Shown piece after piece: positions 13,260-60,234 of a DNA stretch of 64,000 bases. The DNA comes from an uncultured Actinomycetota bacterium (GTDB lineage Bacteria > Actinomycetota > Actinomycetes > Propionibacteriales > Propionibacteriaceae). Position 1 is the first letter of the stretch; every line of letters starts with the position of its first letter. Made by a program: the position numbers and the translations under genes. Where the stretch lies: contig CAVPPP010000046.1 of the NCBI GenBank assembly GCA_963707005.1, positions 111,863 through 175,862 of the forward strand, given 5' to 3'. Under the pieces are notes generated by a model, which saw only the letters and a program-made list of their open reading frames with translations, ran no database searches and was not told where the DNA came from.

Positions 13260-13345
13260 GGTGTCGATCCCTTCATGATCACGGCTGCCTGATCCGGATT
13301 CTGCCTGGTCCGGCTTGGGGCACGGTAGCAGCGCCCAGATATTTA

Positions 13346-13360
13346 TATCGTGTTACGATA
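13346..13360. promoter_or_regulatory. palindromic operator candidate TATCGtgttaCGATA
   Basis: In the divergent MarR (12801..13259) / SPFH (13480..) promoter region. Confidence 0.45.
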
Positions 13361-13479
13361 GGTATGTCGAGAACGGATCGACGTGTTCTCGGCATCGAGG
13401 CAGCTCAGAACCCACCGGGCGGCGCTGCCACCGGCCCGGTGACATCACGGATGTCATCACATCTCGGAAGGAGACGACA

Positions 13480-14454
13480 ATGGGCGTAGAGACGGTTTTC
13501 ATCGTGCTGGCCTTGGTGATCATGGTGGGCCTGCTGGCCATGGCGATGAGTGTGCGGGTGGTCAAACAGTTCGAGCGTGGCGTGGTGTTCCGGCTGGGCA
13601 AGGTGGAGAGCCAGGCACGCCAGCCCGGTCTGACCCTGATCACCCCGTTCGTCGACCGGCTCCAGAAGGTCAACATGCAGATCATCACGATGCCGGTGCC
13701 GGCCCAAGACGGGATCACCCGCGACAACGTCACCGTCCGGGTCGATGCGGTGGTCTACTTCCGCGTCGTCGACCCACTCCGCGTCGCCGTGGACGTCCAA
13801 GATTATGACTCCGCCATCGGCCAGGTCGCGCAGACATCCCTGCGGTCCATCATCGGGAAGAGCCTGCTGGACGACCTTCTCTGCGATCGGGAACGGCTGA
13901 ACCAGGGTCTGGAGCTGATGATCGACAGTCCCGCCGCCGGCTGGGGAGTGCATATCGACCGGGTCGAGATCAAGGATGTCGCACTGCCGGAGTCGATGAA
14001 ACGGTCGATGTCGCGTCAGGCGGAAGCCGAGCGCGAACGACGGGCACGGGTGATCACCGCTGACGGTGAGCTCCAAGCGTCCGGCAAACTCGCCGAGGCC
14101 GCGACCGTGATGGCCGACACACCTGCCGCGCTCCAGCTCCGCCTGCTCCAGACCGTCGTCGAGGTGGCCGCGGAGAAGAACTCCACATTGGTCCTGCCGT
14201 TCCCCGTCGAGCTGCTCCGCTTCCTGGAGAGCGCCACGATCCCGGCTGCCGCCAGCCCGTCCACCTCCACACCGGCCACCGCCGAGCCGGCCGCCGCCGC
14301 GGAACCAGCTCCAGTCAGGCCTGCCAGTATCGCCGCACCCAGACCTGCCCTGCCGGGGGTGGTGCTCGATCACAGCCTGTCCGAGCTGGCAGGGCTGGCA
14401 CCGACGTTGGCGAGCCTCGCACCGACCGAGAAGGCCACGCCGGTGTCTGTCTGA
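13480..14454 (+). CDS. SPFH/band-7 (stomatin/HflK-like) protein
   Basis: N-terminal TM followed by RVVKQFERGVVFRLGKV...ITRDNVTVRVDAVVYFRVVDP...EAERERRARVI. GGAG RBS before the ATG at 13480. Confidence 0.85.
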   Translation: MGVETVFIVLALVIMVGLLAMAMSVRVVKQFERGVVFRLGKVESQARQPGLTLITPFVDRLQKVNMQIITMPVPAQDGITRDNVTVRVDAVVYFRVVDPLRVAVDVQDYDSAIGQVAQTSLRSIIGKSLLDDLLCDRERLNQGLELMIDSPAAGWGVHIDRVEIKDVALPESMKRSMSRQAEAERERRARVITADGELQASGKLAEAATVMADTPAALQLRLLQTVVEVAAEKNSTLVLPFPVELLRFLESATIPAAASPSTSTPATAEPAAAAEPAPVRPASIAAPRPALPGVVLDHSLSELAGLAPTLASLAPTEKATPVSV

Positions 14455-28441: not shown

Positions 28442-29707
28442 ATGACTACCGCCACCCACCCCGTCCCCGACCGGGTCGTCGTCATCGGCGCCGGAATGGT
28501 GGGCCTGTCCACCGCCTGGTTCCTGCAGGAGCACGGAGTCCAGGTCACAGTCCTCGACCGGACAGGGGTCGCGGCGGGCTCATCCTGGGGAAACGCGGGC
28601 TGGCTGACCCCCGGCGTCGCGACACCCCTGCCGGAGCCAGCCGTCCTCAGGTACGGGTTGCGGGCAGCCCTGTCACCCTCCTCCCCGGTCTACGTGCCGC
28701 CGAGCCTCAAGCCGGCGTTGCTCCGGTTCCTCACCGGCTTCGTCCGCCATTCGACTACGAAGGCATGGAGAACGGCGATGGGGCACCTGGTGGGGCTCAA
28801 TGACCTGTCCCTGGAGAGCTTCGACCGGCTCGAGCGGGGCGGGGTCCAAGCCGAGACACGCGCAGCCGGGTCCTTTCTCGCGGCGTACCGCACCGAGGCC
28901 GAGCGCACGACGCTGCTCGAAGAGATCCAGCACATCCACGCGGCCGGCCAGGACATCGAGTTCGAGGCGCTCACCGGCGACCAAGCCCGCACCATCGAAC
29001 CGCACCTGTCGCAAGAGATCGGTGCTGCGATCCTGCTCAGGGGTCAACGGTTCATCGACCCCGGACGCTACCTCCACGCACTCGCCGAATCGGTGAGCGA
29101 CCGTGGCGGCAAGATCATCGACAGTGCGACAGTCTCACGTCTCCAGGACATCGGCTCCGCGGTGGTCGTATCTACCGCCGAGGGTTCGGTTGAGCAGTTC
29201 GATGTAGCGGTCATCGCGACCGGCGCCTGGCTCGGCGAGCTCGCCCGCCCGTTCGGGGTGCGGAACGTCGTTCAAGCGGGCCGGGGGTACTCGTTCTCGG
29301 TCGCCATCGACCAGGTCCCGGACAGTCCGCTGTACTTCCCTGCGCAGCGGATTGCCTGCACGCCCATCGGGGACCGGCTGCGTATTGCCGGGATGATGGA
29401 GTTCCGCAAGCCGGAGGCGCCGCTGGATCGCCGCCGGGTGCAGGCGATCGCCGACGCCGCCCGTCCGCTGCTGCATGGCATCGACATTGCTGACCGGCAG
29501 GATGAATGGGTGGGCTCCCGTCCGTGCACGGTCGACGGTCTGCCACTGATCGGAGCCACCGGGAGCCCTCGGGTTTATGTCGCAGGTGGCCACGGTATGT
29601 GGGGCATCACGCACGGTCCGGTCACCGGCCGGCTCCTCGTCCAGATGATGGTGACGGGCAAGCAACCCGGACACATCAGACCCTTCGACCCTCTGCGGCG
29701 GCACTGA
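28442..29707 (+). CDS. FAD-dependent oxidoreductase, D-amino-acid dehydrogenase (DadA)-like
   Basis: VVVIGAGMVGLSTAWFLQEHGVQVTVLDR...AGSSWGNAGWLTP. C-terminal GGHGMWGITHGPVTGRLL. 421 aa. Confidence 0.8.
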   Translation: MTTATHPVPDRVVVIGAGMVGLSTAWFLQEHGVQVTVLDRTGVAAGSSWGNAGWLTPGVATPLPEPAVLRYGLRAALSPSSPVYVPPSLKPALLRFLTGFVRHSTTKAWRTAMGHLVGLNDLSLESFDRLERGGVQAETRAAGSFLAAYRTEAERTTLLEEIQHIHAAGQDIEFEALTGDQARTIEPHLSQEIGAAILLRGQRFIDPGRYLHALAESVSDRGGKIIDSATVSRLQDIGSAVVVSTAEGSVEQFDVAVIATGAWLGELARPFGVRNVVQAGRGYSFSVAIDQVPDSPLYFPAQRIACTPIGDRLRIAGMMEFRKPEAPLDRRRVQAIADAARPLLHGIDIADRQDEWVGSRPCTVDGLPLIGATGSPRVYVAGGHGMWGITHGPVTGRLLVQMMVTGKQPGHIRPFDPLRRH

Positions 29708-35439: not shown

Positions 35440-35560
35440 ACCGCGGCGAGATCCTCGAAACCTCCGCGGGTCAGCCCTCGGATTCCGCAACCTCACCAAC
35501 GATGTGCCGCTGTCTACTCGAGGCCGGCGGATTCAGACCCCGACTACACCCTCACCCGAA
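35440..35560 (+). mobile_element. ISL3-family IS right-end remnant
   Basis: Encodes ...GSALGFRNLTN / RCLLEAGGFRPRLHP. Near-identical at DNA level to the 3' end of the ISL3 transposase at 50226-50330. Confidence 0.6.
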
Positions 35561-36319: not shown

Positions 36320-36328
36320 CTCAGGATC

Positions 36329-36913
36329 AGTGCGACGGTCTCACGGCTTCAGGACATTGGCTCCGCGGTGGTCGTATCTACCGCCGAGGGTTCGGTCGAG
36401 CAGTTCGATGCCGCGGTCATCGCGACCGGCGCCTGGCTCGGCGAGCTCGCCCGCCCGTTCGGGGTGCGGAACGTCGTTCAAGCGGGCCGGGGGTACTCGT
36501 TCTCGGTCGCCATCGACCAGGTCCCGGACAGTCCGCTGTACTTCCCTGCGCAGCGGATTGCCTGCACGCCCATCGGGGACCGGCTGCGTATCGCCGGGAT
36601 GATGGAGTTCCGCAAGCCGGAGGCGCCGCTGGATCACCGCCGGGTGCAGGCGATCGCCGACGCCGCCCGTCCGCTGCTGCATGGCATCGACATTGCTGAC
36701 CGGCAGGACGAATGGGTGGGCTCCCGTCCGTGCACGGTCGACGGTCTGCCACTGATCGGAGCCACCGGAAGCCCTCGGGTCTATGTCGCAGGTGGGCACG
36801 GTATGTGGGGCATCACCCACGGCCCGGTCACCGGCCGACTCCTCGCCGAGATGATGATGACGGGCAAGCAACCCGAACACATCAGACCCTTCGACCCTCT
36901 GCGGCGGAACTGA
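36329..36913 (+). pseudogene. 3' fragment duplicate of dadA-like oxidoreductase
   Basis: Nucleotides 36329-36952 are over 90% identical to 29122-29746 and encode the last ~195 aa of the 28442..29707 protein. Confidence 0.8.
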
Positions 36914-46191: not shown

Positions 46192-48542
46192 ATGGAGGCT
46201 GCGATGAGCACCGACACCGATCAGCGCCTTCCCGGGCGCGACCGTCGAGCGATGTTGATCAGCAAGGGCTGGGTCCAGGGTGTCGCCATCGTGATGATCT
46301 TCGGGTTCTTCGTGATGGGGATCCTTGCGTATCGGACCTACGCGGCGTCCATGCCGCAACCGGTAGAAGGTGGTCAGCGGCAGCGGGGAGACGGTCTTCA
46401 CCACGGCAGACATCACCGCGGGTCAGGTGCTGTTCAACCGGCGGGGCCTGATGCAGTACGGGTCCATCGTCGGACATGGTGCGTACCTCGGTCCTGACTA
46501 CACCGCCGACTACCTGCGGCGCTCAGCCGACTTCGTCGAGGAGCAGTTGCGCAGGCAGGGATCGGCTGATCCACGCGCGGATCTGGTCGAGGAGTTCCGC
46601 ACCAACCGCTACGACAAGGCCACGGGTGTCTTGACGTTCACCGACAACCAGGTGCTGGCCTTCGAGGCCCTCAAGACTCACTACGGCACGTTCTTCGGTG
46701 AGGACTCGACGAAGAATGGCCTCATTCCCCGGTTGATCACGGATCCGCAGGAGATCCACCAGCTGACGGCCTTCTTCGGCTGGACAGCGTGGGCGGCTGC
46801 GGCCGAGCGACCAGGTCATGACTACTCCTACACCAACAACTGGCCCGCCGAGCCTCGGGTCGACAACGGTCCTACCGCCGATCTGGTGATCTGGAGCGTC
46901 TTGTCGCTGGTCGTGCTCCTGGTCGGCACCGGTGGGTTGTTCGCCGTCTACGGGCGCTGGAGCCAGAGCATCGGCTGGCACAGCGCGGAAGCGCCCGTGC
47001 TGTCGTTCCGGCAGCCGGGTGAGGTGGCGCTGACCCCGTCTCAGCGCGCGACCGCATGGTTCTTCTTCGTGATCGCCGGGTTGTTCTTGGTCCAGGCGCT
47101 CCTGGGGGCGGCCGCTGAGCACTACCGAGCGGATCTGTTGAGCTTCTTCGGCGTCGATCTCGCGCGGCTCCTCCCGTTCAACCTGGCACGGACCTGGCAC
47201 GTGCAGCTGTCGCTGCTGTGGACCGCGGCCGGGTTCTTGGCGGCCGGCATCTTCTTGACCCCCTTCATCGGCGGCCGTGAGCCGAAGCGACAGTCGACCC
47301 TGGTGTACATCCTGTTCGGGGCTGTCGTGGTGGTGACGGTGGGAAGCCTGTTGAGCGAGGCGCTCTCCATCCACGGTGTCGCCTGGGCCAAGGGGCCACT
47401 TTTCGAGCAGCAGTGGGAGTACCTGGATCTGCCACGCGTCTGGCAGATACTCCTCGACGCTCGGGCTCTTCATCTGGATTGCGATCATCTACCGCGGAAT
47501 TCGGACCAGGTTGAAGTCGGAATCCCGAGGCAACATGCCGTGGCTGTTCTTCTTCTCGGGTCTGGCCATTCCGGCCTTCTATGCAGTGGGCATGTTGGCC
47601 GGGAACGAAACGCGACTCTCGGTGGCGGAGTTCTGGCGTTTCTGGGTGGTTCACCTGTGGGTGGAAGATTTCCTCGAGCTGTTCACGACGGTCATGGTGG
47701 CCTACATCTTCGTCATGCTCGGAGTGGTGCGTGAGAGGATCGCTCTCGGCATCATCTTCTTGGATGTGATCCTGTATTCCGCCGGCGGCGTCATCGGCAC
47801 CATGCATCACCTGTACTTCTCCGGGACCCCGGTGGAGCACATGGCCTTGGGGGCCTTCTTCTCCGCTGCCGAAGTGATACCGCTGACCTTCTTGACCGTG
47901 GAGGCGTGGACGTTCCTGCAGCTGGGTGCGCGGCAGGAGAAGAGGTCCAGTGCACCGTTCCCGCACCGTTGGGCGGTCATGTTCTTGGTCGCCGTGGGCT
48001 TCTGGAACTTCCTCGGCGCCGGCGTCTTCGGCTTCTTGGTGAACCTGCCCATCGTGTCCTACTACGAGATCGGCACCGCCTTGACCGCGAATCATGCTCA
48101 CGGAGCCATGATGGGCGTCTACGGCATGTTGGCGGTCGGCCTCTCCCTCTTCGCGCTGCGCTACATCATCCCGCCACAGAAGTGGCCCGAGCGCATGGCC
48201 AAGCTGTGCTTCTGGTCACTGAACATCGGATTGGCCTGGATGGTCTTCGCGACCCTGCTGCCGCTCGGTGTGCTGCAGCTGTACCACTCCGTTCGCTTCG
48301 GCTACTACGAAGCTCGTTCGCTGGGCTTCATCACCACCCCCGGCAATGCCCTGCTCGAATGGACCCGTCTGCCTGGGGATCTGCTGTTCATCATCGGTGG
48401 CTGCATCCCGTTCCTCTGGATCTGCTTCCAGGGTCTGCGGTACTTCCGCAGCGGCCCGACGACGATGGAGCTCCCCGCCGACACGCTCTACACGGAGAGC
48501 CAGCCCGTGACGGCCGCTTCGCGCAAGGAGGGCAGCAAGTGA
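46192..48542 (+). pseudogene. norZ: quinol-dependent nitric oxide reductase (qNOR/NorZ), two +1 frameshifts
   Basis: N-terminus LISKGWVQGVAIVMIFGFFVMGILAYRTY. Frame switch at ~46370 to GETVFTTADITAGQVLFNRRGLMQYGSIVGHGAYLGPDYTADYL. Second switch at ~47460 to the heme-copper core (WVVHLWVEDFLELF...HHLYF...NHAHGAMMGVYGMLA). Confidence 0.85.
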
Positions 48543-49169
48543 TGTCGATCAACGTCCTGCTCGTCTGTTGCTACACGCTCTTCCTGGTGCTGACGGCCTA
48601 CGGGTTCGACCACCTGGCCAAGCGGACCGCGGTCAGGGCGCAACGCTGGCGTACCGGGTCCTTTCGCTACCACCAGGACCACGACGCCTGGAAGTGTCCG
48701 CAGGACCAGTGGTTGTGGCCGACGTCGTTCGACCCGGAGCAGCGCGTCGTCCGCTACCGCGCCAAGCCGTCGGTCTGCAACTCCTGCCCGGTCAAGGACA
48801 CCTGCACGACATCGAGCCACGGGCGGGAGGTGAGCCGGGAGATCGACCCCTGGCCATACTCCGAAGCCGGCCGATTCCACCGCGGAATCGCGTGTGCGAT
48901 CGCCGTCCTGGCCATCGTCCTTCCGGCCGCGATGCTGCTGTCCAGGCCATCCACGGCGGACCTGCTCGCCCTGCTGGCCGCCATCGGCATCGGCATCGGC
49001 GCAGGCATTCCACTGGCTCGACACCTGTGGTCGTCACCCACGGGCTTTCCCGAGCACATACCCCAGGTCTCCGTCTACGAGGAAGCGTCGACCGATCGCT
49101 TCTCGACCACCTGGGGGTCGTTCACCCGTCGCCCGAGAAGCGTCAGCACCAGAGGAGAACGCCACGCCA
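48542..49169 (+). CDS. hypothetical Cys-motif membrane protein
   Basis: Start overlaps the qNOR stop (TGATG). Contains CPQDQW...CNSCPVKDTC and a C-terminal TM. There is no stop before the downstream SPFH start in the same frame, so this may be a fusion or a lost stop. Confidence 0.35.
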
Positions 49170-49990
49170 TGACGACGGCGATCATCGTGGGACTGACCCT
49201 GCTGGTCGTGGCGATTCTCGCCTTGGCCACATCAATGCGGGTATTGCGGGAGTACGAGCGAGGCGTCGTCTTCCGACTCGGCCGCCTACAGACCCTCTAC
49301 GATCCAGGGCTGCGAAGGGTACTTCCCGTCGTCGACCGGATGATCAAAGTCGATCTCCGGTTGGTGACGCTGACGATTCCGCCACAAGAGGTCATCACCC
49401 GCGACAACGTTCCGGCGCGCGTCAATGCTGTCGTGCTCTTCCGCGTCATCGATCCGGTCAAGTCGGTGATGGAGGTGGAGAACTTCGCCGTTGCCACCTC
49501 GCAGATCGCTCAGACCTCACTGCGGTCGTTGCTCGGCAGGGTCGATCTGGATACGTTGCTCGCCCATCGGGAGAACCTGAACGAGGACTTGGCCACGACC
49601 ATTGCGGCGCAGACCATGCCGTGGGGCGTCGAGGTCAGGGTGGTGGAGATCAAGGATGTGGAGATTCCCGAAGCGATGCAGCGGGCCATGGCCCGGGAGG
49701 CGGAGGCAGAGCGCGAACGTCGGGCGAAGATCATCAACGCCCGCGGGGAGCTCCAGGCTTCCGAGGAACTGCGCCAAGCTGCCGAGATCCTGAGCCGCAA
49801 TCCGGCTTCGCTGCAGTTGCGCTACCTGCAAACTCTGCTCGAGCTCGGCGCTGACCAGAACTCCACGGTGGTCTTTCCCCTGCCCATCGACATCGTCGGC
49901 CCGTTCCTGAACAGCATGGTCCACAACGACGTCAGCAAGACGGTGGAGAGAGCCACATCGGCGACCAACGGGACCGAGGTTCCACGGTGA
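49170..49990 (+). CDS. SPFH/band-7 (stomatin-like) protein
   Basis: RVLREYERGVVFRLGRL...ITRDNVPARVNAVVLFRVIDP...EAERERRAKII. AGAGGAGAA RBS. Paralogue of 13480..14454. Confidence 0.8.
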
Positions 49991-50205
49991 CGGTGCCGCG
50001 CGGCGGCGAGTTTACTGCGCCGCTCGGTTCGACCCACCGTCAGTCGGGTTGTTGGCGACGCCCGCGTCGATGGCGATCTTCGAAGCGGTGATCGCCACTT
50101 ACGTCGCATCGGGATTGGCACCGATGATCGGCGCCAGGATGGACAGCCAGACCTGCAGGGGTGGGCCGTCCTGGATCCGGCTGCAGCTTTTCGAACCCCG
50201 GGCTG

Positions 50206-51592
50206 GGCAGGGGTTTGGAGGCTCTTCAGAATCGAGGGTGTAGTCGGGGTCTGAATCCGCCGGCTTCGAGTAGGCATCGGGCGATGTAGTTGGTGAGGTT
50301 GCGGAAGCCGAGGGCTGAGCCGCGGAGGTGTTCGAGCCGGCCGTTGATCGCCTCGGTGGGTCCGTTGCTGGCTCCGGGCCGGTCGAAGTAGGCCAGCACG
50401 TCGACGGCCCGCTTCTTCAGCGTGCGGCCGAGGGTGATCAGCTCGGTCAGCGGCTTCGGCACCCCGTGGCTGAGCGAGTCGATCAGCTTGACCATCAGCT
50501 GGCGGCCGCGGACTCGGTCGGGTTGCCGGTAGGCGGTGATCATGCGCTGGTAGATCCCCCAGGCCGCCTCGACCTGGACATGGGCGTCGTCGGCGAACAA
50601 TGTTTCGAGCCGCTGCTGCTGTTTGTCGGTGAGCAGGTCGACGCCGGTGTGGAGGGTGCGGCGGGCTCGGTAGAGCGGATCGTTCGGCGCGGCCGCGGTG
50701 ACCGTGGATGATCTGCTGGATCCGGCGGCGACATCGGTCGAGGGCGTCGCCGGCGAGGCGGACGACATGGAACGGGTCCATCACCGCGACGGCGTCGGGC
50801 AGCTCCTCGGCGGTGGCGGTCTTGAACCCGGTGAACCCGTCCATCGCGACGACCTCGATGCGGTCACGCCACGCCGCTGGGCGTTCGGCGAGCCACTGCT
50901 TGAACGCTTGTTTGGAACGACCTTCGACCATGTCGAGCAGCCGGGCCGGGCCGGTGTGGTCGCGGACCGGGGTCAGGTCGATGATCACGGTGACGTACTT
51001 GTCGCCGCGGCGGGTGTGCCGCCAGACGTGCTCATCGACCCCGATGACGGCGACGCCGTCGAAGCGGTGCGGGTCGTCGATCAGCGCGCGTTGCCCTTCG
51101 GCGAGGACGGCGTTGTTGGCGGTGTTCCACGACACCGCGAGCCCTTCGGCGACCCGGGCCACGGTGAGGTGCTGCACCACCAGGCCCTCCAGCGCCCACC
51201 GCAGCCCGCGGCGGGACAGCTTCGCTCGCGGCTCCGCGGCCCGGCTGGTGTCTTGGCGCCACACATGCCGGCACTCGCTGCAGCGGTAGCGGCGGACCGT
51301 GACGTGCAGGCTGGTGGGTCGCCACCCGAACGGCTCGTGCGCCAGCCGGCGGATCACGGTGTCGCGCGGGACGCCTTGGCAGCCGCAGCGGTGGCACCAG
51401 TCGTCGGGGTCGACGACCCGGCACGCCAGCACGGCACGATCAGGGTCGAGGCGTTGCCCGGTCACGACGAGGCCGAGCTCGTCGAGGCGGCAGAACACGG
51501 TCAGGTCAGGGCAGCCGAAAACGGCATCAGGGGTAGCGTCAGTCACCGTCGAGGTCTTCCAGATGGGTCGAGTGTGAGAACTTCCATCTTCG
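50206..51592 (-). mobile_element. ISL3-family insertion sequence (transposase frameshifted)
   Basis: The transposase at 50226..51546 matches the ISL3 N-terminal zinc-ribbon/HTH, the DDE region and the GFRNLTNY C-terminus. The frame breaks near 50700 between ...IIHGHRGRA and PNDPLYRARR. Imperfect terminal inverted repeats: GGCTCTTCAGAATCGAGGGTG (~50206) and CACACTCGACCCATCTGGAAGACC (~51569). Confidence 0.75.
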
Positions 51593-51914: not shown

Positions 51915-52847
51915 TCATCTCGTAGTCCATGCAAACTTTGACCTCGTCGTAGCGGACGAAACGCTGGTGATCAGCATCTGGTCGGCCCCATCGTACTTGT
52001 CGAAGGAGTGGAAGAACGGAGGGATGGTTCCAGGAGAGACATCGCTCAATAGGTAGAACTTGCGATCAGGATCCTCCTTCGTTGGCGTCCATCTTAGATC
52101 TCCGTCGTCACCACCACGCTCAGGTGTAAATAGAAGGACTGGGTGGGTTGACTCGTTTACGCCGTCGACCAGTGTGTCCACTGAAATCACGTACCCTGGC
52201 CCCGTATAGGCGTAGGGAACTGGAAGGTACTTCCACTTGTAGTTGTCAGCACCGTCTAGCAGGATGCCCTCCGATGCATCGTCCTGGATGGCATCTGAGG
52301 GTGTCTTGCAGCCCCGCGATCCTGAAGGAAAGATTGGGATCGGTTCATCAGCGCTGCTGGTGTCCGAGCTGTCTGACGAGGAGGTGTCGCGATCTTCGGT
52401 CTGAGTCCTGGTCTGACCGGAGGTGTCGTAGGAACCAGTATCGGATACCGCGCTCTCGTTCAGCTTGTAGCCAACCCAACCGAAGAAGGCCGCTCCTGCA
52501 AGGGTCAGAGCTGTGCACACTACCCCGATACCGATTAGGGCCTTTGACCAGACTGGCAACCTCGCCGCCTTGATGGAGCTTCCCAGGGTTTGCGCAGACA
52601 TTGACGTCGTTGGCTCAACTGGCCGTTGATAGACGATCCTGGGGTTGAGGACGGTCGCATCCGGGTCGACATCCTGTGTCAGGGTCTCAGGCTCGTCCTC
52701 CTGGACCGCAGGCTTGCTCTTGGGACTCTTGTCCGGGGTGATCCACATGATCAGTCCTGCGAGCAGTCCGATAGCACAAATGACGAGGAAAACCTTGAAT
52801 GGCACGTGGATGTGGATTCGGCCAATGGTGTCGACGAGGTGGAGCAT
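51915..52847 (-). CDS. hypothetical two-TM envelope protein with Ser/Asp-rich linker
   Basis: AAGGAA RBS. Two TM helices, an acidic Ser/Thr-rich low-complexity segment and a ~150-aa C-terminal domain. Lower GC (~55%). Confidence 0.6.
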   Translation of the reverse strand: MLHLVDTIGRIHIHVPFKVFLVICAIGLLAGLIMWITPDKSPKSKPAVQEDEPETLTQDVDPDATVLNPRIVYQRPVEPTTSMSAQTLGSSIKAARLPVWSKALIGIGVVCTALTLAGAAFFGWVGYKLNESAVSDTGSYDTSGQTRTQTEDRDTSSSDSSDTSSADEPIPIFPSGSRGCKTPSDAIQDDASEGILLDGADNYKWKYLPVPYAYTGPGYVISVDTLVDGVNESTHPVLLFTPERGGDDGDLRWTPTKEDPDRKFYLLSDVSPGTIPPFFHSFDKYDGADQMLITSVSSATTRSKFAWTTR

Positions 52848-53076: not shown

Positions 53077-55155
53077 TCACCCAGTCTTCCTGTACATCGG
53101 CGGTGCATCCGCGTAGACGCTGCCCTGCTGATGGTTGTAGAGAATGACGAGACGGTCTCTTTGCCTGCGGTGATCCGAGCTGTAATCAGGATCACAGGAG
53201 GCCAGGTTGAAGTCTTGGCGGGCAGCGGTCGGACAGTTCCACGTCACACCTGACGGAAAGAATGCGAGGTAGATAGACGCCGCGACCGGGCACGAGCCGT
53301 CGTCCAGGCAGATTGTGTAGGTGCGTGCACCTGACACGGGCCAATCCGCAGCGGTTTCCCCAGCGTGCGCGTCCGGCCATTTGTCAAGCACGTTGCTGAG
53401 GCTGAAGCAGTTCTTCTCGTCGACTGCCTCGTTGTCAGGTATCGGGGTTCCTTGCGTACACCACATCCCCTGCAGGTCGTCGGCGAATACACTGTCGCGC
53501 CGCATGGCTTCGCCTACGATTCGAGCGGCCTTGCTGTCTGACCAGTCCGTGATCAGGAACTCGGCCAGGCCCGCCAGATATCTCGACGAGCACGCTTGCA
53601 GTGGCTCGACAGCCTTCGCTGCTGCAGCTTTGAAGCCTGAGAGCTGCCAGAGTTCTTTGCTGGTGTCTGCGAACTCGTCCCGCAGGGCGAGGTTGCGGTA
53701 TAGCCGGTCGGAGTCAGTTGCCCGCGACCGACAGGAGGGTTGCCAGTCTCCGAGCCCTTGCGGTCGGCCACGGCCATTGATTGACCACGAGAGGGGCCCG
53801 ACAAGATTGTTTGCGAACTGGTCGGAGGCGTAGAAAGCCAATTCGCCGACCGTCAGGATTTTGAACTTTCGGGAGATTTCGCGGGTAAGCCGGTTGGCTT
53901 GGATCGCGGCTGATCGCGAAAGCCCAGACTTCGCAATCGCACGCCGCGACAGCGTTTCAAATCGAGCGCCGAACTCACTGTCAGGGCGCAGCAACTCGCC
54001 GGCGCATTCCCCAATAGAGTGCACGACCGCGGAGATGAGCTCAGAACCATCGGTGAGGTTAGAACGTTTGAGCAGCGCCTTCCCACCGCACTCGTAGAGG
54101 GCCTGCAACATTGCGTTGACGGCTGGATTCTCCTGACCACCGACGTTCGCCTGCCCGAACCCGTAAGCAACCACGTCGACAAAGAAGCTGACGCCGTCGG
54201 CCTTGGCCTCCGCGGCGATGTGGTAACTGCCAGGGTTGGCCGGCCGTGCAACCCCGACCGCCCCGGTGAACAGTGGTGGCATCAGAAAGTGTTCGTCGTC
54301 GTCGAGAACTAGTCGGGCCGTCGAGTAGACGATGGCTGGAACGTCGAAGCGGTCGTCGCCCGGCCATGTCCAAGCCCAGCTCTGATCTCCGTCGGTCATG
54401 GTGAGTCGCTGCGTGAAGGTCCGGTTGTTGGCGATTCGGACGGTCACCCGTTGGCTTTCGTCTGGCTCGAAGCAGACTCGTATAGCAGCCTCATCGAGGT
54501 CTTCGTCGGGATCGACGACGTGGTCGACCCATGCTGGTAGTGGTCGACCTGAGCAAGTGGGAGCCTTCACACGGCTGCCCACAACCTCACCAACGGTCTG
54601 ACCCAGGTTCGCCAGCCACGTCACGACCGAGAACTTCGACACCTCCGCGGTGAGCGTGGTGCCTTTCCAGTGATGATCGACGGCCTCCAGCGGCTCCCAG
54701 ACATGCTTCTTGTCGTTCCAGTGCACGAGGATCAGCGTGGCGCGCTGAAGGTCGGTGAGCTCAGGAAGCTTCCACGACAAGGAAAGCGGATGGCGTAGTG
54801 GCTGGTTGTGCTCGACGCTCACAGGACGTCCGCCGACCTCGGTGGCAAAAGGGCCGACGACAGTACCGACTGGCTTGCCAATCCTCACTTCGATGCTGGT
54901 GTCCGCCGCGACTGTCTTGCCCGGTACATCGACGGTGACACCAGATTCGACCACTGCCCCGCCAGTGTGGTCAATCCGGTGGCCCTGATCGGGCAGTACA
55001 GGCTCGGGGTCGGCACCCAGCTCGGCAGACTGCGTTGTCGCAGTGGAGGGCGGAGGAGGCACAGGGGTCGGTTGGAGCGTGCAAGCTCCCGCCAGCATCG
55101 CGAGACTGATGGTGACGAAGAGCGCTGATCGGCGGAGCATTGGGCCTCCATACAT
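53077..55155 (-). CDS. large secreted (lipo)protein, function unknown
   Basis: 692 aa. N-terminal signal peptide MLRRSALFVTISLAMLAGAC with a probable lipobox Cys. No recognisable catalytic motif. GC ~60%. Confidence 0.65.
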   Translation of the reverse strand: MYGGPMLRRSALFVTISLAMLAGACTLQPTPVPPPPSTATTQSAELGADPEPVLPDQGHRIDHTGGAVVESGVTVDVPGKTVAADTSIEVRIGKPVGTVVGPFATEVGGRPVSVEHNQPLRHPLSLSWKLPELTDLQRATLILVHWNDKKHVWEPLEAVDHHWKGTTLTAEVSKFSVVTWLANLGQTVGEVVGSRVKAPTCSGRPLPAWVDHVVDPDEDLDEAAIRVCFEPDESQRVTVRIANNRTFTQRLTMTDGDQSWAWTWPGDDRFDVPAIVYSTARLVLDDDEHFLMPPLFTGAVGVARPANPGSYHIAAEAKADGVSFFVDVVAYGFGQANVGGQENPAVNAMLQALYECGGKALLKRSNLTDGSELISAVVHSIGECAGELLRPDSEFGARFETLSRRAIAKSGLSRSAAIQANRLTREISRKFKILTVGELAFYASDQFANNLVGPLSWSINGRGRPQGLGDWQPSCRSRATDSDRLYRNLALRDEFADTSKELWQLSGFKAAAAKAVEPLQACSSRYLAGLAEFLITDWSDSKAARIVGEAMRRDSVFADDLQGMWCTQGTPIPDNEAVDEKNCFSLSNVLDKWPDAHAGETAADWPVSGARTYTICLDDGSCPVAASIYLAFFPSGVTWNCPTAARQDFNLASCDPDYSSDHRRQRDRLVILYNHQQGSVYADAPPMYRKTG

Positions 55156-55214: not shown

Positions 55215-57356
55215 TCAGTGATCCATGCAGGTTCTAGCGTCGTCCATGTAGGCGCGCACGACTGGGCGATAGCGCATAAGCAGCCCGTCCTTCGGCCATG
55301 GGTTGATGTTCAGCTCTTCCGGGGAGTCAAGAGACGCCCACGTACGGTTCGACACGGCGCCGATCCCCTTCATCGAATCTCCATCAGCTGTCGCTGCGGT
55401 TCGCCAGACACCTGTGGCGTAGAGGTCTGGCTGTCCGTTGCTCGGTTCAATCTTGTAGGTGACCGCCACGATGTACTGATCGGTGTCGTACATGCCCTCG
55501 CTCGCTGGCATCGGGGCGACTCCGACGTCGACAGATGTGAAGGTTGCCTGCTCGCCGAAACGCTTGGTGTATTCGTTGACCATGTCACCGGTCCAGGACT
55601 CTGGTGCGCCGGGGCCGCTGGTCATCTGGGTGGTGACGTCTTGACCGATCACCAGGCAGCGCTGCGCCCGTTTCAGCGTGGGTGGATAGAGATCAACGTT
55701 TGTCTTGGATGGGTACTCGTACTTTTCGTTACCTGACTTCACCGTGGCATCGACCTGGTTGAAGTAGAGGCCGATTGCCAAGAGCATCGTCATCCCGATC
55801 ACGATCACACCGACGACGCCGCCGATGACGATCGCCAAGACCTTGCCAGTGCCCAGGCCCCTCCGGTCCGCAACGGTAACCGGGGGAATCTCTACGGTGT
55901 CAACAAGCGACTCCACATCGACAGAATTGGAACCGGGACCGGAACTCAGAGCAGCGCTGGAGACGTCTGCTTTGTCCGCGCTGGACTCGTCCGCGCCATC
56001 GCCCGTCGGGGAATTGTCGCCCATGCCGCCAGCGGCATCATCATTCCCGACCTTTCCAACCAGCCGCGAGACGAGGTCTTTGCCGGTCAGCTTCAACACG
56101 GTCCAGTTGATGAAGGCGAACACAAGGCCAATGAGGAACAGCACAGCGATGCCGGCGACACCTACGACGAACCTGAAGGCTCCACGAGGAAGGTTGTCCA
56201 AGAACTGCTCGGCGGCGTTCCAGGCTGTGCTGAACCAACTTGGACCCCCTCCACTGCGGTACTCCTGCTCGGCGGGGTACTGGCCTGACGGGTTCTGCGC
56301 TTCCCGAGTCCGGTCGCCGACCGTCGGTTCGCCTGACGAGTTTGGCGCTGCGCCGGCGCCAGTCTGCTCGTCTTGGTCGTCATTGTGGGAGCTGCTGCTC
56401 GCCTCATCGCTGGGCGCAGAACTCTGCTCGGACTGTGATGAATTGGATGATCCTGATGGGCCTCCTAGCTCGCGCAGAAACACTCGTAGCGTTGAAGTCT
56501 CTGTCACGTGGATAGATCGGGCATCGCTTGCCGACTCCGCCAGGATCCCGACCAATTCATCGTCGGCATTCATTACGGGTCCGCCAACTGCCGTGTGGGG
56601 GAGGGCACTGGACCCGATCATGTCAACGAGCCGCGTGCCCATCCCAACGTTCTCGCCGAGCGTGCCCGTCTTGCTCTTGCGGACTTCCTTGCCACCGCTG
56701 TACTCACCGTAGAAGTACGCCTTTACCGCGGCGCCGGTCTGAGCATCGGTATCAGAGATTGTGAGATACGGAGCCTTCACACCCTCGACGCGCAGTACGG
56801 CTATGTGACTGTCTCGCGCCTTCTCGTACGCAGACGTCAAGGCAGAACCGCGTGCAGCGAGATCTGGAGTCTCGATAGTGACCGAGCTATAGGGGATGCC
56901 CACCGGATACTGGTTGCTGCCAATCAGGACTCCCGGAGACGAGGCACCACCAGACACCGTCGCATCAGCAAGCCTGCGGTCCTGGTGAGCGAAGTCTTTG
57001 CCCACCGAGCTGTAATCCGAAATCTGATCGGCAAAGTCCTTCTCCAGCGCCTCCCTGACCAACCAGGACTTGGGGTCGAAGCAGGTAGACGAGCTCACTA
57101 TGGTCCCCGTGTCGACAAAGGTGCCCGTGCACCGCACGGTGGCGGTCAACGTCCCCTCAACGGCAGGATCGTTGCTGGCCTTCGCCGGCCAGGTCCCAGA
57201 CTGCTGCCAAGTCACCTCCACGAACGTCGTGGCCTTCTTCAAGGTCACGGCTGCCTTCGCGGACGGTGCTGCGGTGACTGCGCAGGCCGGGGCCAGCATG
57301 AGCGCGATCAAAGCAAGCAGAGCGCGCTTCATCGCCAGGGTGACGGTGGTGGGCAT
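55215..57356 (-). CDS. signal-peptide S1 (streptogrisin-like) pseudoprotease domain, two TM helices and a C-terminal extracytoplasmic domain
   Basis: Signal peptide MKRALLALIALMLAPACAVTAAPSAKA. The following domain aligns to the chymotrypsin/alpha-lytic fold (CTGTFVDTGTIVSSSTCF ... DSHIAVLRV ... ALPHTAVGGPV...LVGILAES), with the catalytic His and Ser positions substituted. A Ser-rich linker, TM1, a Gly/Asp-rich loop, TM2 and a ~190-aa C-terminal domain follow. Confidence 0.6.
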   Translation of the reverse strand: MPTTVTLAMKRALLALIALMLAPACAVTAAPSAKAAVTLKKATTFVEVTWQQSGTWPAKASNDPAVEGTLTATVRCTGTFVDTGTIVSSSTCFDPKSWLVREALEKDFADQISDYSSVGKDFAHQDRRLADATVSGGASSPGVLIGSNQYPVGIPYSSVTIETPDLAARGSALTSAYEKARDSHIAVLRVEGVKAPYLTISDTDAQTGAAVKAYFYGEYSGGKEVRKSKTGTLGENVGMGTRLVDMIGSSALPHTAVGGPVMNADDELVGILAESASDARSIHVTETSTLRVFLRELGGPSGSSNSSQSEQSSAPSDEASSSSHNDDQDEQTGAGAAPNSSGEPTVGDRTREAQNPSGQYPAEQEYRSGGGPSWFSTAWNAAEQFLDNLPRGAFRFVVGVAGIAVLFLIGLVFAFINWTVLKLTGKDLVSRLVGKVGNDDAAGGMGDNSPTGDGADESSADKADVSSAALSSGPGSNSVDVESLVDTVEIPPVTVADRRGLGTGKVLAIVIGGVVGVIVIGMTMLLAIGLYFNQVDATVKSGNEKYEYPSKTNVDLYPPTLKRAQRCLVIGQDVTTQMTSGPGAPESWTGDMVNEYTKRFGEQATFTSVDVGVAPMPASEGMYDTDQYIVAVTYKIEPSNGQPDLYATGVWRTAATADGDSMKGIGAVSNRTWASLDSPEELNINPWPKDGLLMRYRPVVRAYMDDARTCMDH

Positions 57357-58236
57357 TGCCGGAAATCCTTACGTGAAGAGACTATGGAAAGTTCGGGGGT
57401 GATGGCGGTGGTGCCAGCCATACCGGAGCCAGACGCTAGGTGTTCATCGCACGTACGGGCCCCGGTAGCTACTCCACGATGCCCAACAGCGTGCCGTGAA
57501 AATGGCGCCCTTATTACTGGCGCCAACTTGCTTGCTGGTGAGGTTGGCGTCGCTCATGCGCTGCGTTGCGTACCTGGTAGACACCTTGGTGTCCGCCTGC
57601 GCTCTATCAGCAGTCGCTGCCGCCAGGCTCCCGACCGCAAACGCCGAAGCGCCAGTCCACACAATCGCCTCGCTCGCATATGGTCCCCGAATGTCACGAC
57701 GGAGCCCCCGTTTCGCCTGATGACGTCGGAGCGTAGCGAAGATCAGCCGACGCAGTGGACACTTCACACACTTCAGTGCAGCATTCGGAATATTTCGCGC
57801 TCCTCTGCCGCGTGTCGCACAAGTCGTCCGGGTCGCGGGCCGGTCGACACACTGGTCGTGCCCAAACCGCGTGTGGTCAGGGTGGTTGCCATATGACAGT
57901 CCCGACATAATGCCCGGTGAGGGGACGTCGTGCGGAGACGTCGGCAGGGAGACGTGGCGGAAGGCGGCGCCGCACGATCGAGATGCGTCGCTGGCGAGTG
58001 CCGACGCGAGGGCGATCGTCGGGACCTGTACGACAAGTGCCTGTCATTAGGGCGGCCTATCGGACGGCGCTAGGAACTCAGCTCCTAGGGATGATGCTTT
58101 TGCCAAAAGGCGTCTATGAGGTCCGTGCCGAGCGGAGGTGAGATTTCGACAGACAATGCGCATCACCAGATTCCGAGTACGGCCCAGGCGATGAGGCTGT
58201 CGAGCCTTCGGACGTCGCGACACCATTAAGCACCGC

Positions 58237-58623
58237 TCAGCCGATGCAGTGCCCTCCGACCGGTGACCACATGACGCCGTCCGAGGTGTAGGGAGCCGGA
58301 GTGGACAGCCAGTGATCGGAGACGTACCACTGGCCGCGGGCCTCCAGCACCTTCCACCAGATGGTGTTGCCGTTCGATCCCACGCCCGGACCTCGCACCC
58401 AGCACGACACGGGCACCTCCACTCCTTCGCGGGCGCCGAAGCCGGTGACGGAGGCGCCCGGCGAGTTCCGCCAGCCGACACCCATGCCGCTGGTGCGTTC
58501 CACAGTCGGGGTGCAGTCCCAGGTCGGGCACTGCGGATCGGCGTGAGCTGCCTTGGTCGGGCCGGCGAGGACGGCGGTGACGGCCAGCGCGGACGCTGCC
58601 CACGCGATGATCTTGTTGCTCAT
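58237..58623 (-). CDS. secreted SH3b-like small protein
   Basis: AAGGAG RBS. Signal peptide MSNKIIAWAASALAVTAVLAGPTKAAHA. Mature ~100 aa with four Cys and an SH3_3-like pattern (VEVPVSCWVRGPGVGSNGNTIWWKVLEARGQWYVSDHWL). Confidence 0.55.
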   Translation of the reverse strand: MSNKIIAWAASALAVTAVLAGPTKAAHADPQCPTWDCTPTVERTSGMGVGWRNSPGASVTGFGAREGVEVPVSCWVRGPGVGSNGNTIWWKVLEARGQWYVSDHWLSTPAPYTSDGVMWSPVGGHCIG

Positions 58624-58800
58624 GGCGAACTCCTTCAGATGGTGAGCGGACAAAGACATACTGGAGAAGTCGCCGCTCCCGAGCCAAGCGTTCTTTGTCC
58701 GTCCGATGACCGGTGACGCGTCCGGTTGATCGGACGGACACCCTTGAACCCTTGAGGACTAGACGGCTCCGCTCGCCCTGCCCGACCCGCTTGCTGGCGC

Positions 58801-59589
58801 TCAGCAGCTCATCAGAGCGGTGCGCCCCGGGCCGGGCGCGTAGGCCTTCGACAGGTTCGTGTAGAGGTCCGGGACCCAGGTCCCGTCGTCGAGCCGGTTC
58901 CAGACGGGCCAAGTCAGCTGCTCACCGTCGACGACGTCGGTGAGCCGCTCGCCGGCGCCGTCCTGACAGACCACCCGAATCGTGGCTCCCTCGGACAGGG
59001 CGGCCACCTTGCCGCTCTTCCGGTTCGGTCCGGCGTAGGTGCTGACGCCCAGTCCGGCGGTGTTCGCAACGGTCGAATCCGTGGTCGACGGAAGCGTCGC
59101 CGGAGTCGCTGGGAACGCCGACCAGCGACCCACCAGGACGCCCGCAGCAAAGAGCAGGACGGCTGCGACTATCCCGACGAAGGCACGTCGCCGCCGGTGT
59201 GCGGGTCGCCGTTGCGGGGTCGGCTGCGTCAGCCCGACCGGAGTGTCGAGCTGGGGGAGCGCTTCGGCGCTCGAGCTGATGAGTGGGTCCAGCGGCTCCG
59301 CTGCAGAAGACGTCGCCGGGTTGCTCAGGCGCTCTCTGCGACGGGTCCACTCCTCGATCTCGGGCGGTTGCGCGTCGGCCACCGTCAGCAGATCCTGCAG
59401 CTGGTCGGCCGATGGCAGCCGCCTGCCGGTGGTGATGTCATGAACGGTGGTTCTGCCCCAGCCCGAGCGGCGGGCGAGCTCGCGTACCGACAGCGCCGAC
59501 AGGCGTTCCCGCAGGTCGGCTGCGAACTGCTCACTTGGCTCAGCTGGCGGCTTCTCGGCTTCCGGTTCCGGGGACGTCTCGATGGTCAC
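58801..59589 (-). CDS. membrane-tethered XRE-type HTH regulator with extracytoplasmic SH3b-like domain (RodZ-like topology)
   Basis: HTH LSVRELARRSGWGRTTVHDITTGRRLPSADQLQDLL, a single TM AFVGIVAAVLLFAAGVLVG, and a C-terminal SH3b-like region (GATIRVVCQDGAGERLTDVVDGEQLTWPVWNRLDDGTWVPDLYTN). GTG start at 59589 assumed. Confidence 0.55.
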   Translation of the reverse strand: MTIETSPEPEAEKPPAEPSEQFAADLRERLSALSVRELARRSGWGRTTVHDITTGRRLPSADQLQDLLTVADAQPPEIEEWTRRRERLSNPATSSAAEPLDPLISSSAEALPQLDTPVGLTQPTPQRRPAHRRRRAFVGIVAAVLLFAAGVLVGRWSAFPATPATLPSTTDSTVANTAGLGVSTYAGPNRKSGKVAALSEGATIRVVCQDGAGERLTDVVDGEQLTWPVWNRLDDGTWVPDLYTNLSKAYAPGPGRTALMSC

Positions 59590-60234
59590 GGGCGTGCCTT
59601 TCCGACACACTCGCCCCGACCTCCGCCTCCGCTCGGTCCGACCCGAGACAGCGGGCGCCAGATCGGTTAGGCTCGTAGAGTTCCGGCAAGAACCTCGACG
59701 ACCCCGTGCCAAGTGCCGACCTCCCGGTTAGCGCTCGCTACACGGGGTCGACGTGCGTCTGAGTCCTGATCTTAGTGCCGGGGGCGGATTCCGTATCGAC
59801 CTACAGTTGACAGGTTTCGGACATGTCCAGAACCGGACAATTCACCTCTGGAGCGATCGCGCCTGGATGGTGCGTTCGCCGCCATTCCCGATGCGCCAGT
59901 GCGCCCTAGGCGAGTCCGCGCTCGCGCTTCTCGGGGGCATAGGTCCGGACCGGCGGCCGGCAAACAGCGGCTCGCCGAGCACGCGGTACTTGAGCTCGAC
60001 GCCGCGCCAGCAGTGCGTCGACGCCGACCACTCCGTTTCCGTCAGGGCGCGCGGTCACAGATCTCCGGTCTGTCACGCGTGGACCCGGAACTTCACCGTC
60101 CGGACGCGTCCGGACGGACAGTTCCGTCAGTTCCGGACACCGCACTACCCGCTGCAGGGTGACATCACGACCTGCCGTCAGGCAGCGACCCCGAGCCAGG
60201 TTGGCTCGCGGAAGTCCATGAAAGGACGGCTCTG

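Follow-up and report, generated by a model that had tools for sequence, protein, structure and literature searches.

A probable membrane-tethered S1-fold pseudoprotease with a second, orphan ectodomain in an uncultured Actinomycetota bacterium

A stretch of 64,000 nucleotides (nt) from an uncultured Actinomycetota bacterium of the Propionibacteriaceae (GenBank assembly GCA_963707005.1, contig CAVPPP010000046.1, positions 111,863 to 175,862), hereafter the window, was analysed for one gene on its minus strand, which codes for a protein of 713 amino acids (aa), hereafter the window protein. The analysis showed that the window protein is probably a catalytically dead, membrane-tethered protein of clan PA, family S1. 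As read from its sequence, it is a structural member of S1 and a catalytic non-member, that is, a pseudoprotease. It also carries a hairpin of two transmembrane segments (TM1 and TM2) and a second orphan ectodomain, and this combination is unique among everything searched.

Loss of the catalytic residues

The residue equivalences agreed in three independent alignments (MAFFT, hhalign, and HMMER against HtrA1/2). The column table contained 27 sequences, of which 17 were active and 10 were degenerate, the latter being the window protein and members of the related protein clusters P0002, P0003, P0005 and P0006. His57, Asp102, Gly193 and Ser195, together with Ser214-Trp215-Gly216 (SWG), were present in all active sisters (17/17), while none of these residues was present in any degenerate sequence (10/10). 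The window protein has T91 at His57, H184 at Asp102, T255 at the oxyanion-hole Gly193, V257 at the nucleophile Ser195, and A273-E274-S275 in place of SWG. The Asp102 column of the other degenerate members reads Q, G, G and R. Since His57, Asp102, Gly193, Ser195 and SWG have all been lost, the window protein is predicted to be unable to work as a serine protease.

A first-pass annotation of this DNA had quoted three motifs in the order of the chymotrypsin fold, and all three were located: CTGTFVDTGTIVSSSTCF at aa 76-93, DSHIAVLRV at aa 182-190, and TAVGGPV...LVGILAES at aa 255-275. It had also described the catalytic His and Ser as replaced, which agrees with T91 and V257. The Asp, which it had left in place, has been lost too, the homologous residue being H184 and not D182, which stands two positions away from the Asp column and corresponds to Ala in P0002. 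No intact triad was found on realignment by the three methods. What the window protein has retained is the C(F/L/V)DP motif, GGP, VGI, and the His-loop pair C76/C92, a putative disulfide with 16 residues between its positions that aligns with the Cys pair (C42/C58) of all active sisters.

At or beside the former triad positions, the window protein alone has a stretch of Ser and Thr together with a His as well as an Asp, from which a non-canonical hydrolase could be drawn, for example one with Ser88-90/Thr91, His184 and Asp182 grouped where the active site used to be. A threonine at the nucleophile position is also known from MamO, a degenerate HtrA-type protein, although MamO is inactive (PMC4794232). 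Against such a hydrolase, P0002, the closest homolog, has A, N and Q where the window protein has D182, S183 and H184, and the oxyanion-hole Gly has been lost. No position in the degenerate set holds a His in all members, so that a conserved alternative triad can be ruled out. Hydrolytic activity of this kind is considered highly improbable.

The catalytic loss was common to the four degenerate relative clusters, and the domain appears to have been under purifying selection since then. Compared with P0002, the S1 domain showed 61% identity, with 0.29 nonsynonymous (dN) and 1.46 synonymous (dS) substitutions and a dN/dS of ~0.2, which is approximate because dS is near saturation. The linker and the predicted cytoplasmic loop were 26% and 42% identical to P0002, respectively. 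The best-conserved stretches of the dead domain (aa 85-130 and aa 250-291) flank the former active site.

Fold of the N-terminal ectodomain

The N-terminal ectodomain was found to be homologous to the active sister proteases, and it is predicted to take the S1 double-barrel fold. PF13365 (Trypsin_2) was the sole Pfam family matching the S1 domain, with a score of 22.6 bits against a gathering cut-off of 27.6 (E=1.9e-4), and the match (aa 139-271) spanned the C-terminal barrel only. P0002 and P0005 scored 19.2 and 25.7 bits on Trypsin_2, respectively, and no Trypsin_2 match was obtained for P0003 and P0006. Single-sequence searches of NCBIfam and of the PDB sequences gave no match to the window protein. 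The profile check against Trypsin_2 suggested by the first-pass annotation thus had two outcomes: the single sequence stayed below the threshold, but the S1 similarity was significant once the relatives were used. An hhalign comparison of five degenerate with three active sequences (P0004 and two Trypsin genes found beside the relatives) gave a probability of 99.5% and E=5e-23 over 275 columns.

When the family profile was compared with the PDB, the matches across the S1 domain were S1 proteases (HtrA1/2, DegQ, SplA, trypsin, and MamO in entries 5hm9/5hma; E 0.002-0.1), and the remaining ones (ACE2 and membrane cofactor protein) lay in the linker and TM columns. An AlphaFold2 (AF2) model from the six-sequence alignment reached a moderate predicted local distance difference test (pLDDT) score of 69.8 and a predicted template-modelling score (pTM) of 0.70. 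At E<=1e-3, Foldseek matched this model to 367 PDB chains, of which the best 50 were S1 proteases with a probability of 1.00. The top matches were HtrA1, Deg2/Deg9, DegP, DegS and Mycobacterium tuberculosis Rv3671c/MarP (8se8, 4fln, 1ky9, 2qf3 and 3k6y), with E 1e-8 to 1e-7 and a target-normalised template-modelling score of ~0.65, and the trypsin-like domain of IgA1 protease was also among the best 50.

The S1 fold named in the first-pass annotation was thus recovered by hhalign, by exhaustive HMMER search and by Foldseek. Its affinity to streptogrisin (MEROPS S1E) was not, as no S1E enzyme was among the best 50 of the 367 fold matches, and the branch indicated is that of Trypsin_2/HtrA/Deg/MarP. 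The domain belongs to S1 of clan PA, in an unnamed Trypsin_2-type subfamily of membrane-tethered proteases from high-GC (guanine plus cytosine) Gram-positive bacteria.

Membrane topology and the C-terminal domain

Exactly three hydrophobic segments were found (aa 3-33, 389-425 and 500-535; Kyte-Doolittle, 19-aa window). The first agrees with the cleavable signal peptide already proposed, as it ends with SAKA before AV, and an AxA motif occupies the equivalent spot in every relative (variants AHA, ARA and ASA). A lipoprotein reading was rejected, APAC being a poor lipobox and C25 being missing in P0002. The stalk that follows the S1 domain has a PT/ST-rich equivalent in all relatives. There are four K/R within the 15 aa after TM1, and in the relatives the equivalent TM is followed by RRRR or RKRK. 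The loop between the two TMs, described earlier as Gly/Asp-rich, comprises 85 aa with 13 G, 11 D and 11 S, so that Ser should be added to the description. Given the exported N-domain, the only consistent arrangement from the signal peptide, hydropathy and the positive-inside rule would be N-domain outside, loop inside and C-domain outside, with seven K/R on the flanks of the loop and four on the outside.

The common layout of the relatives (n=7) was a signal peptide, the S1 domain, a Pro/Ser/Thr-rich linker, one TM, a basic stop-transfer and a short or variable tail. The topology had been called unusual at first pass, and indeed all relatives examined, active or dead (7/7), were single-TM proteins, while TM2 and the C-domain were found in the window protein only. 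The 71-aa acidic tail of P0002 aligned with the loop of the window protein to about aa 497, with the common motifs LVGK..GNDDAA and V(D/E)(T/S)LV...P..V.D. Beyond aa ~497 the window protein continues with DRRGLGTGK, TM2 and the C-domain, which resembles the way in which type II signal-anchor proteins begin. We infer from this resemblance that TM2 and the C-domain may have come from a read-through fusion between an ancestral type I protein, such as P0002, and a downstream type II signal-anchor protein.

The C-domain gave no match in 1.84e9 proteins, Pfam, NCBIfam, the PDB sequences, or JGI metagenome DNA searched with the C-terminal half, and no paralogue of it was present among the ORFs (open reading frames) of the window or in the loci of the relatives. 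Weak fold matches to cystatin, latexin and the NTF2-like class, which includes protease inhibitors, were obtained from an unreliable model.

Several of these results weigh against the reading of the window protein as a dead, tethered S1 protein with a fused second ectodomain. The pLDDT of the AF2 model is only moderate and two of its loops are disordered, the structure model of the C-domain is unreliable, the positive-inside bias (seven against four) is modest, and dS is near saturation. The SWG strand and the oxyanion hole have been remodelled, and classical extended-peptide binding is not assured. No relic start codon or ribosome-binding site was present at the proposed fusion junction, where a GGAGG 21 nt before an in-frame TTG was unconvincing as a relic start. 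Also, no stand-alone homolog of TM2 plus the C-domain was found in 1.84e9 proteins or in JGI metagenome DNA, so that a donor for the fusion could not be demonstrated.

Relatives and the gap-rpiB locus

A word-indexed search of 5.8e9 clusters returned only the window protein itself and P0002 (476 aa, 45% identity). The exhaustive HMMER search of 1.84e9 representatives with a two-sequence profile returned six proteins in all. Among these, P0004 was linked to the family profile at E=2e-6 in 1.84e9 proteins and is an active-type S1 protease (Trypsin_2 64.8 bits, Trypsin 49.2 bits) with the motifs TAGHC, GDHAFLKL and GMSGGP. NCBIfam placed the active sisters nearest to MarP and HtrA, far under the cut-offs; for MarP (NF033740) they scored 20-32 bits against a cut-off of 250 bits, and the window protein did not match NF033740. 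Scans of GTDB genomes with the N-domain and with a three-sequence alignment gave no confirmed relatives, and a scan of JGI metagenome DNA with the N-domain alignment gave no match.

The gene order in the relatives was PPase, RelA/SpoT, a 133-aa gene, GAPDH, an active Trypsin gene (where present), the dead paralogue, RpiB, Rpe and transketolase, on related metagenomic contigs of ~55% GC. In contigs L001 (4938-7689) and L007 (6718-9104) the active gene lies immediately upstream of the dead gene, with identical architecture. Contig L010 (8001-10613) shows an active gene and then a 396-aa gene of equivalent architecture, in the same gap-rpiB synteny as L005 (1909-3171), where the dead gene is the only one between gap and rpiB. 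The 396-aa gene was considered as a fourth dead paralogue and was left as "possible", with 10.5 bits over the ectodomain. The active and dead tandem neighbours in this locus suggest that a gene was duplicated in tandem and that one copy then lost catalysis, as has been argued for MamO and MamE (PMC4794232). The window copy sits outside the ancestral gap-rpiB locus.

The same tandem arrangement would suit a window protein that regulates an active paralogue or assists it as a cofactor, the paralogue being a membrane-tethered S1 protease encoded elsewhere in the genome, by hetero-oligomer formation or substrate presentation. Insect serine-protease homologs act as cofactors of clip proteases. The genes of identical architecture in L001 and L007 and the architecture-equivalent pair in L010 speak for a partnership, as does the non-catalytic activation of MamE by MamO (PMC4794232). 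Nevertheless, tblastn found no active paralogue in the window, the dead gene of L005 has no active neighbour, and the window copy no longer sits at the ancestral locus. On balance, and by analogy with these systems, such a cofactor role is rather unlikely for the window protein, although it comes next after the binding role proposed below.

Coding sequence and genomic context

The intact ORF called at first pass was recovered, and its strand (minus), which had not been given, is added in Table 1. An AAGGA lies 9 nt 5' of the ATG, and the N-terminus MPTT...A(L/M)(R/K)R is common to the window protein, P0002 and P0006. The 713-aa protein was recovered with the same neighbours in ENA ERZ25039594, Logan ERR11554255, Logan ERR12040026 and one NCBI record with a 176-kb contig, the ENA copy differing by 2 nt (I161V and one synonymous change). 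As independent assemblies carry the same protein, the long fused ORF is no assembly artefact. The GC at codon positions 1/2/3 was.58/.47/.73 for the C-terminal 179 aa and.58/.51/.73 for the N-domain, and the other two frames did not have this signature.

Table 1. Position of the window protein gene, its parts and its neighbours in the 64,000-nt window
Feature	Position	Strand	Basis or remark
Coding sequence of the window protein, ATG to stop, 713 aa plus stop	55215..57356	minus	ORF list; identical protein in independent assemblies
Signal peptide, aa 1-35, predicted cleavage after SAKA	57252..57356	minus	Hydrophobic aa 3-33; AxA
Degenerate S1 (chymotrypsin-fold) ectodomain, aa 36-297	56466..57251	minus	hhalign; AF2/Foldseek; sub-threshold Trypsin_2
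T91 at His57; SSSTC aligned with TAGHC	57084..57086	minus	Column table, hhalign, HMMER
H184 at Asp102; SHIAVLRV aligned with GDHAFLKL / DIATLRI	56805..56807	minus	Column table, hhalign, HMMER
T255-A256-V257 at Gly193-x194-Ser195; TAVGGP aligned with GMSGGP	56586..56594	minus	Column table, hhalign, HMMER
Low-complexity Ser/Gly/Pro/Gln/Glu-rich extracellular linker, aa 298-392	56181..56465	minus	Composition
TM1, aa ~393-420 (core ~396-417), out-to-in	56097..56180	minus	Hydropathy
Predicted cytoplasmic Gly/Asp/Ser-rich loop, aa 421-505	55842..56096	minus	Alignment to P0002 tail
TM2, aa ~506-534, in-to-out, preceded by DRRGLGTGK	55755..55841	minus	Hydropathy; in no relative
Orphan C-terminal domain (predicted extracytoplasmic), aa 535-713, two Cys (C567, C710)	55218..55754	minus	
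Orphan lipoprotein gene, 692 aa, lipobox LAGAC	53077..55155	minus	59 nt downstream; probable operon partner
Orphan 310-aa protein, two hydrophobic segments, acidic S/D/T-rich linker	51915..52847	minus	Co-oriented; order kept in L009
ISL3-family transposase bordering the lower-GC patch	49822..51546	minus	Pfam DDE_Tnp_ISL3, E=8e-29

The gene for the 692-aa lipoprotein was found in unchanged order in independent contigs. The lipoprotein matched nothing in Pfam, NCBIfam, PDB, PHROG or PADLOC, the 310-aa protein matched nothing in Pfam, PHROG or PADLOC, and the neighbouring orphan proteins showed no similarity to one another. The GC profile was 0.59-0.62 for the patch at 52-58 kb against ~0.67 for the sequence, the gene of the window protein having 0.61. 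The patch of three genes (window protein, lipoprotein and two-TM protein) looks horizontally acquired beside the ISL3 element. The GC of the loci of the relatives (0.545-0.62) would fit acquisition from a lower-GC actinobacterium. Plasmid searches by tblastn and blastn gave a sole match, to the end of the insertion sequence (IS), which is annotated as ISL3-like ISPfr2 family; as only the IS end matched, the patch is not a known plasmid segment. No large repeats delimiting the patch were found.

The DDE_Tnp_ISL3 match covers profile positions 1-107 of 240, and the transposase gene may be defective. Inverted matches of 41-47 nt (94-95%) between 35460-35553 and the interior of the transposase (50234-50329) suggest a second IS fragment.

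A phage reading was rejected, neither the window protein nor its orphan neighbours having a PHROG match. The PADLOC matches were to retron RT-protease models, in which a reverse transcriptase (RT) is fused or adjacent to a trypsin-like protease. A defence reading was rejected as well, as the match to RT-Protease_XI (E=4e-5) comprised the generic S1 C-terminal half only (profile positions 396-504 of 510) and no RT domain was present.

The lower-GC patch adjoining ISL3, with both neighbours orphans, could also be the setting of a functionless relic, that is, a horizontally acquired, decaying gene whose long ORF has been kept only through recent transfer. The family is rare (six cluster representatives in 1.84e9), and two COX1/NorB-like genes in the window look frameshifted, which indicates that decay or sequence error occurs in the record. 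On the other side, four assemblies carry the 2.1-kb ORF intact and with no or hardly any differences, the coding GC3 signature runs throughout, the C-domain included, and dN/dS of the N-domain is ~0.2. The dead state is also ancient and has been kept in several lineages in a conserved core locus. A relic is regarded as quite unlikely.

Upstream of the gene, the 880-nt stretch at 57357-58236 holds a single called ORF, which is weak (72 aa, 57444-57662), and neither an Rfam family nor a sigma-70-like promoter was found in it. Rfam and tRNA scans gave no match in the region or in the whole window, and the signal of the promoter and terminator scan was not above that of shuffled sequences. Further upstream and co-oriented with the gene are a membrane-bound XRE/HTH_31 regulator (58801-59712, minus strand; HTH, Pro-rich linker, TM and ~100-aa ectodomain) and, after it, a 140-aa Cys-rich secreted protein (58237-58659, minus strand), both of which are also present in contigs L004 and L009. 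A pair of a LuxR response regulator and a HisKA_3 kinase is also upstream on the same strand.

With these same-strand regulators nearby, and with the tail/loop 42% identical to P0002 against 26% for the linker, a transmembrane signalling or anchoring protein could be proposed, in which the ectodomains, either one of them or the two together, detect a ligand in the envelope and the acidic loop recruits a cytoplasmic partner. However, Pfam and NCBIfam found no known signalling domain in the loop, which is of low complexity and probably disordered. The tails of other members are near absent (2 aa in P0005, 10 aa in the Trypsin gene of L007), so that cytoplasmic signalling would not be a property of the family. 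Signalling is accordingly given a slim chance.

The rest of the window was chromosomal-looking and actinobacterial, with an aldo-keto reductase, a P-type ATPase, COX1/NorB-like genes, SPFH proteins and a PucR regulator. The COX1/NorB-like (qNOR-type) genes at 10400-12125 and 46370-48542, both on the plus strand, are each split across two overlapping ORFs in different frames, the first covering COX1 positions 2-86 and 74-436, and the second a NorB cytochrome-c-like domain plus positions 2-124 and 131-409. These apparent frameshifts could be pseudogenes, programmed events or sequence errors. One SPFH/Band_7 gene comes after each COX1/NorB-like gene (13315-14454 and 47906-49990, plus strand). Repeats at 13649-14090 and 49329-49770 share 70-73% DNA identity at a constant spacing of 35,680 nt, and the NorB-like and SPFH module is indicated to be an old colinear duplication. 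A direct repeat of 300 nt with 97% identity was also found at 29122-29421 and 36328-36627, 7.2 kb apart.

Proposed function and significance

The role tentatively favoured, at somewhat less than an even chance, is that of a module which binds or scaffolds without catalysis on the outer face of the membrane, by way of the conserved surface of the former active site. The first-pass annotation had likewise suggested a binding function in place of a hydrolytic one. After Sec export and cleavage of the signal peptide, the dead domain would stand on its flexible Ser-rich stalk at the outer face of the cytoplasmic membrane. TM1 would cross inward and place the conserved acidic loop in the cytoplasm. 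TM2 would cross back out and display the lineage-specific alpha/beta domain of ~180 aa, probably closed by a C567-C710 disulfide. The dead domain might bind envelope polypeptides through the surface formed by aa 85-130 and aa 250-291 and hold the partner at the membrane. Candidate partners are the probably co-transcribed lipoprotein, the C-domain of the protein itself and an active paralogue.

A more speculative extension, to which a low probability is assigned, is a device of two ectodomains in which the C-domain docks on, or competes for, the surface of the former active site and is coupled to it through the TM hairpin and the acidic loop, the family as a whole being an undescribed active/dead pair in the gap-rpiB-rpe-tkt locus. 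If this were true, the window protein would be a receptor or pseudo-substrate switch at the membrane, and a conserved pair of active and dead proteases would exist in a core locus of an Actinobacteria lineage of ~55% GC.

No long-standing question depends on the window protein, and its practical value lies mainly in annotation, for which "inactive S1-fold membrane protein" is fitting, and not "serine protease" or "hypothetical". The one-off TM hairpin with its orphan ectodomain is an example of the way in which membrane proteins of type I and type II may be fused into a double-ectodomain protein. The lead best suited to be followed is the pairing of an active with a dead gene at gap-rpiB in the relatives. 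A recurring tandem of this kind in a core-metabolism neighbourhood is a tractable system for the roles of dead proteases in the Gram-positive envelope.

Comparison with known systems

The closest comparison is with the active sisters (the P0004 cluster, L001 4938-6062 and L007 6718-7809), which are homologous to the window protein over ~275 columns. They share the signal peptide, an N-terminal beta-hairpin, a long helical insertion between the His and Asp regions, the Cys pair, the C(V/F/L)DP motif after the His position, the Pro/Ser/Thr linker, and a TM after the S1 domain. They differ in keeping H/D/G/S and SWG, where the window protein has T/H/T/V and AES, and in having one TM and a short tail, with neither the TM2 nor the 179-aa domain of the window protein.

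HtrA, DegP, DegS and Deg2 (MEROPS S1C) and MarP are, like the window protein, extracytoplasmic and membrane-associated, and gave the best structural matches of the AF2 model as well as the best matches of the family among PDB and NCBIfam sequences. HtrA proteins have one or more PDZ domains and an active triad, whereas the window protein has no PDZ domain (none at E<=10) and no triad. The anchor of MarP consists of four N-terminal TMs and that of HtrA of an N-terminal TM or signal peptide, while the anchor of the window protein is C-terminal to the domain. The S1E enzymes (streptogrisin and alpha-lytic protease) are likewise secreted actinobacterial proteins of the S1 fold with a His-loop disulfide and the same order of His, Asp and Ser motifs, but they are soluble and active, while the window protein is membrane-anchored and has lost its catalytic residues. 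In Pfam, the window protein matched neither Pro_Al_protease (the alpha-lytic pro-domain) nor PF00089.

The eukaryotic S1 pseudoproteases, such as haptoglobin, azurocidin/HBP, HGF and the insect clip-domain serine protease homologs, have a substituted triad and binding or cofactor roles. They are of lineages unrelated to the window protein, are soluble or differently anchored, and have other partners.

Bacterial pseudoproteases are little studied, and the only S1 case met with here that has been well characterised is MamO. In MamO, a degenerate HtrA-type domain has been put to a new use and joined to a membrane part; the protein activates MamE non-catalytically, is inactive with Thr at the nucleophile position, and belongs to a type of pseudoprotease that arises after duplication (PMC4794232). 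MamO/LimO and the window protein have in common a bacterial S1/HtrA-type domain, a degenerate active site and a membrane-embedded fusion partner, and MamO was duplicated beside an active paralogue and kept for non-catalytic roles. The C-terminal part of MamO, however, is a multi-pass TauE-like transporter, while the window protein has a two-TM hairpin and an ectodomain with no TauE domain. MamO keeps His and Asp with a Thr nucleophile and binds metal through a surface di-His motif, whereas all three catalytic residues are replaced in the window protein. The two have no specific sequence relationship beyond the fold, and taxon and process differ, as does the context, which is the magnetosome island for MamO and an ISL3-flanked patch in an actinobacterial-type chromosome for the window protein. 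The parallel with MamO is only an analogy of principle: in a second, unrelated lineage, a membrane-tethered S1 protease would have been duplicated, would have lost all of its catalytic machinery and would have remained under purifying selection afterwards.

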